From Escherichia coli O127:H6 str. E2348/69 (lineage in GTDB: Bacteria; Pseudomonadota; Gammaproteobacteria; Enterobacterales; Enterobacteriaceae), in assembly GCF_000026545.1 (NCBI RefSeq), contig NC_011601.1: a DNA stretch of 64,000 nucleotides. The stretch is one strand, 5' to 3'. This document shows positions 1 through 13,476 of the stretch, piece by piece; position 1 is the stretch's first letter, and the number at the start of each line of letters is the position of its first letter. Below the pieces are notes generated by a model. That model was not told where the DNA came from, did not search any database, and worked only from the letters and a program-made list of their open reading frames with translations. A program made the translations under genes and the position numbers.

Positions 1-13
1 ACACTTTCAGCAA

Positions 14-1227
14 CTAGCTGTAATTGAGCGCCGCGCTCAAATCTTCCGCCAGTCGCGGTGCCATCGACGACAAACGGTTATGCAGCTGAGTAATATCGTC
101 ATAGTTAAACAAATCAGGAATATAGCTGCGCACAATCTTATTCACATGGGTGGCAATTACGCTGGCGCTGTCGATCACCTGATACCCCATATTCAGCGCC
201 TTCGCTTTCTGCGCGGGCTGAATCCAGGTGACCGGCATCCCGTACGCCGGGTCGTTCCCCAGCACGCCGTCTATCTCGCCGTAGGTTTCGCTGGAGGGCA
301 GGGCCATCAGTTTATCTGCCGGAATATCCGCTTCATCAGCCTTAATGCCGTTGATGAAAATGGCGTACTGGCTGGGCTTGAGGCGGAAGTTTTCCCGAAT
401 GCGGATCTCCGGCAGCAGCACGCCGTTGCCGTCAGAAATCACCTGCCGCACGCCGCGAATCCGCTGGGTGAGCGGGTTACCCTGTGCTTTGTCCACCAGC
501 GCCACCAGCTTGTAGCCGAGGCTTAAACTGATGGGCTCGATCAGCGGAATGGTTTCCCAACTGACCTGTTGCTCGCTGGTTTCGGTGATGGTTCGGGTCA
601 GCGTTTCGAGGCTTTTCTCCTCCGCCTCCGCCGCCTGCGGCTGTTTGCTCATCCGCCAGCCGGTAAAGCCAAGCAGGGCGCTGAACAGCAAAAACGGCAG
701 GTGCGGCATCCCCGGCACCACCGCCAGCACAAACATAATTCCGGTAGCGGTGTAGAGCACCGACGGGCTTGCCAGCAACTGGTGGCGCACGTCATGGGCA
801 ATATCGCCATTATCGCTGACGCGGGTGACGATAATCGCCGCTGCGGTGGAGAGCAGCAGGGAAGGGATCTGTGCCACCAGTCCGTCGCCGATGGTCATCA
901 ACACATATTGCTGGAAGGCGGCGTCGGCGCTCAGGTTGTATTTGAAGATCCCGATACAGACGCCGCCGATCAGGTTGATCGCCAGAATCATCATCCCGGC
1001 GATGGCGTCTCCGCGCACAAACTTCGATGCCCCGTCCATCGCACCGTAGAAATCGGCCTCGCTGGCAACATCTTTACGCCGGGTTTGCGCCTGCGCCTGG
1101 TTGATCAATCCGGCGTTAAGATCGGCGTCAATCGCCATCTGTTTGCCGGGCATCGCGTCCAGGGTAAAGCGGGCAGAAACCTCGGAAATACGCTCGGCCC
1201 CTTTGGTGACGACAATAAAGTTGATAG
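14..1227 (-). pseudogene. lfhA: 3' remnant of Flag-2 flagellar export gene (FlhA homolog); N-terminal ~140 codons missing
   Basis: ORF 14..1651(-) matches FlhA from the segment 'IVVTKGAERISEVSARF...GKQMAIDADLNAG...FVRGDAIAG' onward; its first ~142 residues are low-complexity and have no FlhA similarity, so homology starts near nt 1227. Confidence 0.7.
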
Positions 1228-1249
1228 TGAACAGCGTCAGTAAATCCGA

Positions 1250-1991
1250 GCGTGAAAGCATTATCGCCGCGCTGCACGGGCAGTCGATTTTCAATGGCGG
1301 CGGGCTGTCGCCGTTAAATAAAATCAGCCCGACGCATCCGCCGAAACCTGCCACCGTGGCGGTGCCGGAAGAGACGGAGAAAAAAGCGCGCGACGTCAAC
1401 GAGAAAACGGCGCTACTGAAGAAGAAGTCCGCCACTGAGCTTGGCGAGCTGGCGACCAGTATCAACACCATCGTCCGCGATGCGCATATGGAAGCCAATC
1501 TGGAGATGGAGATTGTTCCGCAGGGATTACGCGTGCTGATTAAAGATGACCAGAACCGCAATATGTTTGAACGCGGCAGCGCGAAGATTATGCCGTTCTT
1601 TAAAACGCTGCTGGTGGAACTCGCGCCGGTATTCGACTCGCTCGACAACAAAATTATTATTACCGGGCATACCGATGCGATGGCCTATAAAAGCAATATC
1701 TACAACAACTGGAACCTTTCGGGTGACCGCGCGCTTTCGGCTCGTCGGGTACTGGAAGAGGCCGGGATGCCGGAAGATAAAGTGATGCAGGTGAGCGCAA
1801 TGGCGGACCAGATGCTGCTGGACGCGAAAAATCCGCAAAGTGCGGGTAACCGGCGCATTGAGATTATGGTGCTCACCAAAAGCGCGTCCGATACGTTGTA
1901 TCAATATTTTGGTCAGCATGGGGATAAGGTGGTGCAGCCGCTGGTGAAAAAGCTGGATAAGCAGCAGGTGCTTTCGCACCGAACGCGTTAA
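1250..1991 (+). pseudogene. lafU: MotB/OmpA-like Flag-2 motor protein remnant (LafU/MbhA-like); N-terminal TM region absent
   Basis: ORF 1101..1991(+): the C-terminal part carries a MotB/OmpA-like peptidoglycan-binding region ('IIITGHTD...NWNLSGDRALSARRVL...NRRIEIMV'); the first ~50 residues are the antisense shadow of lfhA. Confidence 0.6.
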
Positions 1992-2061
1992 ATGCTGAAT
2001 CTTTACGCATTTCTCAAACTCTGAAATCACTGTATACTTTACCAGTGTTGAGAGGTGAGCA

Positions 2062-3117
2062 ATGCGTAAAATCATTCATGTGGATATGGACTGCTTTTTC
2101 GCCGCGGTGGAGATGCGCGACAATCCCGCCCTGCGCGATATCCCTATTGCTATTGGCGGCAGCCGCGAACGCCGGGGGGTGATCAGCACCGCCAATTATC
2201 CCGCGCGTAAATTTGGCGTGCGTAGCGCAATGCCAACCGGCATGGCGCTCAAACTGTGTCCGCATCTCACCTTGCTTCCAGGACGCTTTGACGCCTACAA
2301 AGAAGCGTCAAATCATATCCGCGAAATTTTCTCGCGCTATACCTCGCGCATTGAACCGTTATCACTGGATGAAGCCTATCTCGAGGTCACCGATAGTGTG
2401 CATTGCCACGGCTCCGCGACCCTCATCGCCCAGGAAATCCGCCAGACGATTTTCAACGAGCTGCAATTGACGGCATCTGCGGGCGTTGCGCCGGTAAAGT
2501 TTCTCGCCAAAATTGCTTCCGACATGAATAAACCCAACGGTCAGTTTGTGATTACTCCGGCTGAGGTTCCGGCATTTCTGCAAACCTTACCGCTGGCAAA
2601 AATTCCCGGCGTCGGCAAAGTCTCAGCGGCTAAACTGGAAGCTATGGGGCTACGAACCTGCGGTGATGTGCAAAAGTGTGATCTGGTGACTCTGCTCAAA
2701 CGTTTTGGCAAATTTGGCCGCATTTTGTGGGAGCGTAGTCAGGGCATTGACGAGCGCGATGTTAACAGCGAAAGGTTGCGAAAATCCGTCGGTGTAGAAC
2801 GTACGATGGCGGAAGATATTCATCACTGGTCTGAATGTGAAGCGATCATCGAGCGGCTTTACCCTGAACTGGAGCGTCGTTTGGCAAAGGTAAAACCTGA
2901 TTTGCTGATTGCCCGCCAGGGGGTGAAATTAAAGTTCGACGATTTTCAGCAAACTACTCAGGAGCACGTCTGGCCGCGGCTGAATAAATCTGCTCTAATC
3001 GCCACCGCGCGTAAAACCTGGGATGAACGCCGCGGCGGGCGCGGTGTGCGGCTGGTGGGGCTGCATGTGACGTTGCTTGACCCGCAAATGGAAAGACAAC
3101 TGGTGCTGGGATTATGA
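2062..3117 (+). CDS. dinB: DNA polymerase IV (Y-family translesion polymerase)
   Basis: 351 aa, N-terminus 'MRKIIHVDMDCFFAAVEMRDNPALRDIPIAIGG', typical DinB/UmuC family. Confidence 0.95.
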   Translation: MRKIIHVDMDCFFAAVEMRDNPALRDIPIAIGGSRERRGVISTANYPARKFGVRSAMPTGMALKLCPHLTLLPGRFDAYKEASNHIREIFSRYTSRIEPLSLDEAYLEVTDSVHCHGSATLIAQEIRQTIFNELQLTASAGVAPVKFLAKIASDMNKPNGQFVITPAEVPAFLQTLPLAKIPGVGKVSAAKLEAMGLRTCGDVQKCDLVTLLKRFGKFGRILWERSQGIDERDVNSERLRKSVGVERTMAEDIHHWSECEAIIERLYPELERRLAKVKPDLLIARQGVKLKFDDFQQTTQEHVWPRLNKSALIATARKTWDERRGGRGVRLVGLHVTLLDPQMERQLVLGL

Positions 3118-3566
3118 ATAACATACAAATAAGAAACTATCAGCCTGGCGATTTTCAGCAACTATGCGCTATTTTCATTAGAGCGGTTACGATGACCGCC
3201 AGTCAGCATTATTCACCACAACAAATTGCCGCCTGGGCGCAGATTGACGAATCTCGCTGGAAGGAGAAACTCGCGAAATCACAAGTGCGGGTTGCAGTTA
3301 TTAATGCACAACCGGTTGGTTTTATCTCCCGCATTGAACATTATATCGATATGTTATTTGTTGACCCTGAATACACCCTCCGTGGGGTTGCCAGCGCTTT
3401 GTTAAAACCTTTGATTAAGTCTGAATCCGAACTTACGGTGGACGCCAGCATAACCGCAAAACCCTTTTTTGAACGTTATGGTTTTCAGACAGTTAAGCAG
3501 CAGCGCGTTGAATGCCGGGGAGCGTGGTTTACTAATTTTTATATGCGATATAAACCGCAACATTAA
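3114..3566 (+). CDS. yafP: GNAT-family acetyltransferase YafP
   Basis: 150 aa ORF; its ATG overlaps the dinB stop (ATGA at 3114-3117); GNAT-like sequence. Confidence 0.8.
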   Translation: MNNIQIRNYQPGDFQQLCAIFIRAVTMTASQHYSPQQIAAWAQIDESRWKEKLAKSQVRVAVINAQPVGFISRIEHYIDMLFVDPEYTLRGVASALLKPLIKSESELTVDASITAKPFFERYGFQTVKQQRVECRGAWFTNFYMRYKPQH

Positions 3567-3744
3567 ATCCAGCTTGCAAAGAAAATAACGCCCGCCTAGT
3601 ATGTGCGCGTTTTCTTATTCCACAAACTGCAAGGAGGTAAATCATGACAAATCCTTTATCAATGACTCTTTGCAGACCTTTCCAGGATTAATTCTTTTTT
3701 TCTTGCCCTGGATTCGTCTGCCATTTCCTGATTTTTATTCATAA

Positions 3745-4896
3745 ATGGAATGGTACATGGGCAAATATATTCGTCCCTTATCTGATGCGGTACTTACCAT
3801 CGCATCTGATGACCTGTGGATCGAGAGTTCAGCGATCCAACAATTACACACCACGGCAAATTTACCCGACATGCAACGCGTAGTAGGGATGCCAGATTTA
3901 CACCCCGGACGCGGCTATCCGATTGGCGCAGCGTTCTTCTCCGTAGGCCGTTTTTACCCGGCACTGGTCGGCAATGATATCGGCTGCGGTATGGCGCTAT
4001 GGCAAACAGATATTTTCGCGCGCAAATACAACGCCGATAAGTTTGAAAAGCGATTATCAGATCTGGATGACGTTGCTGAAGAAAGCTGGCTGGAGGAAAA
4101 CCTGCCGTCAGCATTTGCACAGCATCCGTGGCGCAGCTCGCTTGGCTCCATCGGTGGCGGTAACCACTTCGCAGAACTGCAACAGATTGATCAAATTATC
4201 GACGCGGAACTGTTTGCACTGGCTGGTCTGGATGCGCAGCATCTGCAACTGCTGGTTCATAGCGGCTCGAGGGGGTTGGGGCAGTCTATTTTACAGCGGC
4301 ATATTGCCTCGTTTTCGCATCATGGTTTGCCGGAAGGCAGTGACGACGCGCTAAGTTATATTGCGGAACATGATGATGCGCTGGCGTTTGCGCGTATTAA
4401 TCGCCAGCTGATCGCTTTGCGCATAATGCAACAAGTTAAGGCCAACGGAAATTCGGTTCTGGATGTGGCGCATAACTTTGTTAGCGCATGTCGAATCGGC
4501 GATCAACAGGGCTGGTTACACCGTAAAGGGGCTACGCCGGATGACAACGGTCTGGTGATTATTCCCGGTTCACGCGGTGATTACTCCTGGCTGGTTAAGC
4601 CTGTTGCGAACGAAAAAACGCTCCACTCGCTGGCGCATGGGGCAGGGCGTAAATGGGGGCGCACCGAGTGTAAAGGGCGTCTGGCAGCGAAATACACGGC
4701 GACGCAACTCTCACGTACTGAACTTGGCAGTCGGGTAATTTGTCGCGATAAACAACTCATCTTTGAAGAAGCGCCACAAGCCTATAAATCGGCTGAAAGT
4801 GTGGTGCAATGTCTGGTGCTGGCTGGGTTAATTATTCCTGTCGCGCGACTGCGTCCGGTGCTGACGCTCAAAAACAGTGGAGGGAAAAAAGGATGA
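3745..4896 (+). CDS. rtcB2: RtcB-family RNA ligase paralog (RtcB2/YkfJ); start may be the Met at 3757
   Basis: 383 aa ORF with an RtcB-like '[10 protein letters not shown]' motif; stop overlaps the prfH start (ATGA at 4893-4896). Confidence 0.8.
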
Positions 4897-5474
4897 TCTT
4901 GCTACAACTCTCCTCAGCTCAGGGGCCGGAAGAATGTTGTCTCGCAGTGAAAAAGGCACTGGACAGGCTGATTAAAGAAGCTGCCCGACAAGACGTCGCG
5001 GTAACGGTGCTGGAAACAGAAACGGGTCGCTACTCTGACACACTACGTTCGGCGCTGGTTTCACTTGATGGCGACAACGCATGGGCTCTAAGCGAAAGCT
5101 GGTGCGGCACTATTCAGTGGATTTGTCCGAGTCCGTATCGGCCTCATCATGGGCGCAAAAACTGGTTTCTGGGCATTGGGCGTTTTACCGCTGATGAGCA
5201 GGAACAATCGGATGCAATCCGTTATGAGACGCTGCGTTCGTCGGGGCCGGGCGGTCAACATGTCAATAAAACCGACTCGGCGGTACGCGCCACGCATCTG
5301 GCATCCGGTATTAGCGTGAAGGTTCAGTCAGAGCGCAGTCAGCATGCTAACAAACGGCTGGCGCGATTACTGATTGCCTGGAAGCTGGAACAACAGCAAC
5401 AGGAAAATAGCGCGGCGCTGAAATCGCAGCGGCGAATGTTCCATCACCAGATTGAACGTGGCAACCCGCGATGA
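4893..5474 (+). CDS. prfH: Peptide chain release factor homolog PrfH (GGQ domain, no codon-recognition domain)
   Basis: Start taken at '[15 protein letters not shown]' inside ORF 4809..5474; contains '[17 protein letters not shown]' (GGQ catalytic motif of class I release factors). Confidence 0.85.
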
Positions 5475-13400: not shown

Positions 13401-13476
13401 GCCGATATAGCTCAGTTGGTAGAGCAGCGCATTCGTAATGCGAAGGTCGTAGGTTCGACTCCTATTATCGGCACCA
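13401..13476 (+). tRNA. thrW: tRNA-Thr (anticodon CGU)
   Basis: 76-nt cloverleaf GCCGATATAGCTCAGTTGGTAGAGCAGCGCATTCGTAATGCGAAGGTCGTAGGTTCGACTCCTATTATCGGCACCA; anticodon loop TTCGTAA; T-arm GGTTCGA. Confidence 0.95.

Follow-up and report, generated by a model that had tools for sequence, protein, structure and literature searches.

The dinB locus of Escherichia coli O127:H6 strain E2348/69 was analysed within a 64-kb window of the chromosome, and all coordinates given here count from the first nucleotide of that window. An intact dinB gene, encoding DNA polymerase IV (351 aa), lies at 2062–3117 on the plus strand, followed directly by an intact yafP gene, encoding a GNAT-family N-acetyltransferase (150 aa), at 3114–3566 on the same strand. 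Both assignments are supported by the open reading frames, the RefSeq annotation and Pfam matches (IMS, IMS_HHH and IMS_C for DinB; Acetyltransf_10, Acetyltransf_7 and Acetyltransf_1 for YafP), with E-values of 2e-50 for the Y-family polymerase domain IMS and 2e-18 for the GNAT acetyltransferase domain Acetyltransf_10. RefSeq record NZ_CP059840.2, also of E2348/69, is 100% identical over the 1.9 kb tested and annotates the two genes identically. Upstream of dinB, a search with the pattern CTG-N10-CAG finds a single match to the LexA (SOS) box within 1951–2070, namely CTGTATACTTTACCAG at 2030–2045 (plus strand). It overlaps a sigma-70-like promoter match, TTCTCA-16-TATACT, at 2011–2038 (plus strand), identified by pattern only in a consensus scan (9/12 matches). 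Downstream of yafP, RNA folding weakly suggests an intrinsic terminator at 3588–3619 (plus strand), composed of a hairpin (3588–3610; −18.1 kcal/mol, z = −1.87) and a U-rich tract; a stricter terminator scan detected nothing after yafP. The dinB stop codon (TGA, 3115–3117) overlaps the yafP start codon (ATG, 3114–3116) to form ATGA at 3114–3117, and here the sequence, the ORF list and the RefSeq annotation all bear out the preliminary description of this DNA. Alignment with K-12 brings out a 7-bp element, ATTATGA (3111–3117, plus strand), which spans the overlap and is present in one copy in E2348/69. Because ATGA is the commonest type of overlap in E. coli operons, the overlap is not statistically remarkable, and the only real content of the observation is the absence of yafN and yafO relative to K-12. 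With its ATGA overlap, no yafN or yafO between a polymerase gene and an acetyltransferase gene, and a LexA box match, the locus corresponds in these sequence features to the two-gene allele of PMC3105422.

Several features of the surroundings can be recorded here. Downstream of yafP lie genes for an rtcB-family RNA ligase (3757–4896) and release factor H (prfH, 4893–5474), both intact in E2348/69 and both truncated pseudogenes in K-12 and O157:H7. On the other side is a remnant of the Flag-2 lateral-flagella cluster, in which the flhA-like pseudogene lfhA′ (1–1240, minus strand) abuts lafU (1206–1991, plus strand), with the same scar as in K-12; E. marmotae retains motA/motB-type genes at this position. 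In the E2348/69 genome, a hicA-hicB toxin-antitoxin pair (contig L002, 1–518) lies beside the flhA-like pseudogene, just outside the window on its upstream side. A tRNA-Thr(CGT) gene is located at 13401–13476, presumably thrW, a classic integration site.

In K-12, yafN and yafO sit between dinB and yafP, as the preliminary description had it, and not elsewhere in the operon; the order is dinB-yafN-yafO-yafP, an operon described by McKenzie 2003 and Singletary 2009, as cited in PMC3105422. Pairwise alignment of E2348/69 and K-12 across the dinB/yafP junction shows a single difference, one clean gap exactly at the junction, corresponding to 759 extra bp in K-12. This block comprises a 752-bp yafNO cassette plus one additional ATTATGA, such that the cassette is bounded in K-12 by a perfect 7-bp direct repeat. 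The K-12 junctions read ...GGATTATGA | TGTATAC...yafN...yafO...TGAATTTAT | ATTATGA ATAAC..., and the uninterrupted junction of E2348/69 reads ...GGATTATGAATAAC.... The ATTATGA that precedes K-12 yafP matches dinB's final sense codon plus stop, and the ends of DinB and YafP are identical in the two-gene and four-gene forms. The repeat described in PMC3105422 is ATGA only, 4 bp. The junction is invariant among the 11 yafNO-free and 10 yafNO-containing E. coli compared, and likewise among cryptic-clade genomes. Thus, E2348/69 and K-12 share the flanking genes, the promoter/LexA box region, the DinB C-terminus and the YafP N-terminus, and differ in the 752-bp cassette and the second ATTATGA, present in K-12 and absent from E2348/69. 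The K-12 YafN and YafO proteins match PF02604 and PF13957 (YafO_toxin), respectively. The possibility that the insert is a transposon was set aside after inspection by eye, there being no terminal inverted repeats at the ends of the 752 bp. Base composition does not single out yafNO either (GC content 42%, compared to 54% for dinB), since yafP is also low in GC (43%).

How common is the uninterrupted arrangement? We surveyed 5,426 complete E. coli genomes with a 131-bp query spanning the junction, taking coverage of at least 80% in one piece as uninterrupted. By this measure, 2,569 genomes (47%) have dinB and yafP directly joined, and yafNO DNA of K-12 is present in 2,847, nearly always in single copy. 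These counts sum exactly to 5,416, the total of genomes in which the locus is present, indicating that the empty and occupied states are essentially complementary; the near 50/50 split is that of a clinically biased collection. Comparison with other strains, one of the checks suggested beforehand, therefore reveals the yafNO-free junction of E2348/69 to be ordinary. The same fusion was described by Gutierrez et al. 2011 (PMC3105422), who found only dinB and yafP in 40% of 98 genomes and in 50% of ECOR strains, with the two genes of such strains "always fused" through the 4-nt ATGA overlap. In that study, phylogroup A was mostly four-gene, B1 all two-gene, and B2 and D mixed. Within B2, 536 and NU14 have yafNO, and Nissle 1917 and E2348/69 do not. 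CFT073, like E2348/69 a B2 strain, and about half of ECOR (PMC3105422) share with E2348/69 the identical overlap, the lack of yafN and yafO, and the LexA box upstream; they differ in that the dinB allele of E2348/69 is unusually divergent, and it is for CFT073 that there is evidence of YafP expression. Specifically, in CFT073 the two-gene operon yields YafP-YFP upon mitomycin C treatment and in stationary phase, and a single SOS-inducible transcript has been reported for the fused arrangement (PMC3105422). SOS control of the dinB operon is published (PMC3105422, PMC7167474). RefSeq also flags decay of the operon in some strains: A287 has an internal stop in yafO, MS 69-1 and NCTC9112 are frameshifted in yafP, and an ST648 strain is frameshifted in dinB as well as yafP. 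Sequencing errors may account for part of these cases. All told, the yafNO-free junction of E2348/69 is an ordinary allele, known since 2011.

Two opposite polarities have been published. Because E. fergusonii has four genes, Gutierrez and colleagues started from a four-gene ancestor and postulated three or more deletions (PMC3105422). Fraikin et al. 2020 (PMC7167474), on the other hand, regard yafNO as an insertion, and treat dinB-yafP in strains that lack it as an "undisturbed" bicistronic operon. The latter authors describe a similar situation for relA-mazG with or without mazEF, and other toxin-antitoxin insertions at sites between cistrons; here too, some strains have a toxin-antitoxin pair within a host operon that is intact and bicistronic in other strains. 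The relA-mazG case involves another locus and another toxin-antitoxin family; at dinB-yafP, the site without the insert is an overlap of 4 nt between the genes, and a 7-bp duplication flanks the inserted block.

Our comparisons favor the insertion model. Uninterrupted, syntenic junctions are found in other genera and elsewhere in Escherichia, and those outside E. coli align base for base with window positions 3108–3135. In Kluyvera sichuanensis, which has nqrF-nqrM upstream and pepD-gpt-frsA downstream of the pair, the dinB stop TAA is separated from the yafP ATG by CC. In Citrobacter amalonaticus, also with pepD-gpt-frsA downstream, the spacer is CCGCG, and in the Escherichia-like Logan contig L031 it is ATAAT, again between TAA and ATG. 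E. marmotae (GGGGTTATGAATAAC, TTATGA) and Escherichia sp. MOD1-EC7003 have the same ATGA overlap as E2348/69. All five of these junctions lack yafNO. A 147-aa YafP beginning M-x-[IL]-R is common to Kluyvera, Citrobacter, L031 and the four-gene forms outside E. coli, and by this comparison the 150-aa form of E. coli and E. marmotae, beginning MNN-, appears derived. An exact-pattern scan for YafP in genome contigs yielded five loci, four of them from Escherichia, and recovered none from E. fergusonii, E. albertii or the E. coli representative; one frameshift-ridden assembly (L033, CP178315.1) was left out. Collinear empty junctions in other genera, together with a duplicate of the dinB end in front of K-12 yafP, are our grounds for taking the two-gene form to be the older one. 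The duplicate is just what is expected if a target was duplicated upon insertion, and would be a coincidence in a history of deletions only. We therefore consider it likely that the two-gene form came first and that yafNO was inserted with duplication of its target. The preliminary description had left the E2348/69 arrangement as either ancestral or the product of precise loss; both alternatives are live, with the two-gene architecture favored as the older; the E2348/69 allele itself may be either primary or restored.

A plausible history of the locus can be sketched as follows. The older enterobacterial state would have been a dinB gene ending in TAA, then a spacer of 2–5 nt, then the ATG of yafP. 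In the lineage of E. coli and E. marmotae, a change of TAA to TGA may have brought into use an in-frame ATG 9 nt upstream, creating the ATGA overlap. Starting at the overlap would lengthen YafP by three residues, the former start codon of the TAA + 5-nt + ATG junction now being ATA. From this overlap allele, the K-12-type allele would have arisen by insertion of the 752-bp yafNO cassette, with its own operator-like leader, the 7-bp ATTATGA being duplicated in the process. From then on, the two alleles would segregate across Escherichia, and the duplication would permit precise excision, regenerating exactly the sequence seen in E2348/69. Since loss through the 7-bp repeat leaves an identical sequence, the allele of E2348/69 may descend without a break from the older form, or it may be a copy that was restored or recombined. 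Taken as a whole, an ordinary two-gene allele of the older architecture, into which yafNO was inserted in other strains, is in our judgment the probable explanation.

The main alternative is the loss-only history of PMC3105422, according to which the four-gene operon is ancestral for Escherichia and every two-gene allele, that of E2348/69 included, is a deletion by recombination or slippage between the ATGA (actually ATTATGA) repeats. Several observations speak for it. Besides the four-gene operon reported for E. fergusonii and the parsimony count on the ECOR tree from which the three or more losses derive (PMC3105422), E. whittamii and SCPM-O-B-8794 have the four-gene form, with junctions as in K-12, and Escherichia sp. 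E1V33 has it in part. The four-gene form also occurs in another genus, represented by metagenome contigs L034–L036, whose YafO clusters with Pseudocitrobacter proteins. In this operon, dS from K-12 is 1.6 for dinB, 1.4 for yafN and 4.2 for yafO; yafN and yafO are thus as saturated as dinB, suggesting that the linkage of dinB with yafNO is also ancient. The left junction of L034–L036 is as in K-12 (dinB TGA | TGTATAC...), and the right junction consists of the yafO TAA, 15 nt and ATG, where the 7-bp repeat is absent. Losses at the locus can also be seen more directly, from opposite yafNO states on near-identical flanks. Strains 536, NU14 and GABEEC10, which carry yafNO, are separated from Trh52, which does not, by no more than 5 differences across about 1,509 flanking sites, at a locus where diversity is about 4.5%; and the yafNO allele of the three strains differs by at least 1.85% from that of every other lineage. 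The most natural reading is that Trh52 recently lost yafNO through precise excision. Secondary empty sites would therefore exist, and E2348/69 could be one of them. Moreover, E1V33 (contig L003, 3676–4000) has a third form of the operon, dinB-yafN-yafP, with an orphan antitoxin; yafO has been deleted between TTAT microhomologies, an independent event indicating that such deletions do happen at this locus. The cassette is not the only dispensable part of the operon. In metagenome contig L040 (1–2492), dinB-yafN-yafO is followed directly by pepD, implying that yafP can also be dispensed with in some lineages.

Against a history of losses only stands, first, the chance identity over 7 bp that it demands of the dinB end and the stretch before yafP. 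Second, such a history would require the junction of L031 (TAA + 5 nt + ATG, with a 147-aa YafP) to have returned, by coincidence, to the arrangement found in Citrobacter and Kluyvera. Third, as contig L032 illustrates, an outgroup lineage can acquire its four-gene form secondarily. L032 carries yafO-yafP and belongs to the same lineage as the yafNO-free L031, the two being 95% identical downstream of yafP. Over the first 80 nt of yafP (L032 1–482 compared), L032 is 90–95% identical to L034 and only 48–60% identical to L031, whereas from about nt 100 onward the identity is 90–100% with L031 and about 55% with L034. This pattern marks a crossover inside yafP, through which a yafNO-type cassette entered L032 across a genus boundary. 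Finding four genes in an outgroup species is thus not in itself sufficient to establish a four-gene ancestor. Flanking variation offers little help with polarity. Among 21 E. coli, no SNP tracks yafNO state, there being no diagnostic site within 250 bp on either side, and in all 100-bp windows the two classes are as divergent from each other as they are diverse internally, so the state cannot be polarized from the flanks. Within Escherichia, dS of yafNO (0.04–0.09) is well below that of dinB (0.2–0.3), but dating the cassette by this comparison is ambiguous because the flanks are abnormally diverse. Weighing these points, we regard a history of losses only as unlikely, albeit one with real evidence behind it. 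Somewhat better than even, in our estimation, are the prospects of a broader proposal, in which the ATGA two-gene junction is ancestral in Escherichia and yafNO a later insertion, in a slot that repeatedly gains cassettes by recombination in its conserved flanks, even across genera, and loses them by repeat-mediated excision; the published polarity would then be incomplete or reversed.

It is also conceivable that yafNO was relocated in the E2348/69 genome rather than lost. YafO-family toxins are known from other contexts, in both chromosomes and plasmids of Klebsiella, though we found no direct support for such a move here. A search of the chromosome for yafNO homologs, following the check proposed in the preliminary description, turned up nothing: tblastn detects no YafN or YafO homolog in the 64-kb window (best E = 1.0), and blastn (word size 11) finds no yafNO-like DNA elsewhere on the E2348/69 chromosome. 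Beyond the window, this search covered the chromosome, as distinct from the strain's plasmids, and homologs down to about 65% DNA identity. A chimeric query, composed of E2348/69 dinB and reverse-complemented K-12 yafNO, matches one place only, and through dinB only, in the chromosome of E2348/69 and in two further O127:H6 chromosomes; the same query matches two places in yafNO-positive strains. Adjacent genes for a Phd/YefM-family antitoxin and a PF13957 toxin, the mark of a YafNO type II toxin-antitoxin module, are likewise found in neither the window nor the chromosome of E2348/69. Since the empty and occupied junctions also account for exactly the 5,416 locus-bearing genomes, relocation is highly improbable. 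Even more far-fetched is an assembly or collapse artefact at the dinB-yafP junction, for which there is no supporting evidence and against which stand three independent O127:H6/E2348/69 assemblies identical at the junction, the 2,569 complete genomes that carry the same one, and ECOR strains with the same fusion sequenced from PCR products (PMC3105422).

The architecture of the junction bears on how YafP is made. Overlaps of the ATGA type usually signify termination and reinitiation, and YafP is probably synthesized by ribosomes that terminate on dinB and then re-initiate at the ATGA, in translational coupling. The only Shine-Dalgarno-like bases, GGGA at 3108–3111, end 2 nt before the yafP ATG, too close to serve well. 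In PMC3105422, YafP synthesis from the fused arrangement was ascribed to frameshifting, which is not needed, because yafP has its own ATG. As for the four-gene form, we take the leader of the K-12 cassette, TGTATACTATTATGTATA, and its counterpart in L034, TGTATACTACAATGTACATTGTA, to resemble operators of the Phd/YefM type. By virtue of these leaders, the yafNO cassette appears to bring along its own regulation.

Aside from the junction, the E2348/69 allele is noteworthy for its divergence. Its dinB gene is 93.3% identical to that of K-12 at the nucleotide level (dS 0.325, higher than that between E. whittamii and K-12), and matches of 99% or more occur only in O127:H6 records, the nearest other allele being 97.6% identical. 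The adjacent yafP gene is 98.2% identical to that of K-12 (dS 0.043). A divergent dinB beside a K-12-like yafP marks the locus as a mosaic. Across E. coli, diversity in dinB and yafP is about 4–5%, well above that of typical core genes.

Finally, what does the absence of yafNO mean for E2348/69? The strain carries one state of a known presence/absence polymorphism that splits E. coli roughly 50/50, and its junction shows nothing out of the ordinary; in itself this matters little. In practical terms, K-12 is not a universal reference for the dinB operon, and strains like E2348/69 and CFT073 permit work on dinB and yafP without interference from the YafO toxin. Of minor interest is how chromosomal toxin-antitoxin cassettes can enter and leave host operons while the operons stay intact. 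Bearing on this turnover are the 7-bp duplication, the collinear empty junctions of other genera, one documented gain across genera and one microhomology deletion of the toxin gene only.
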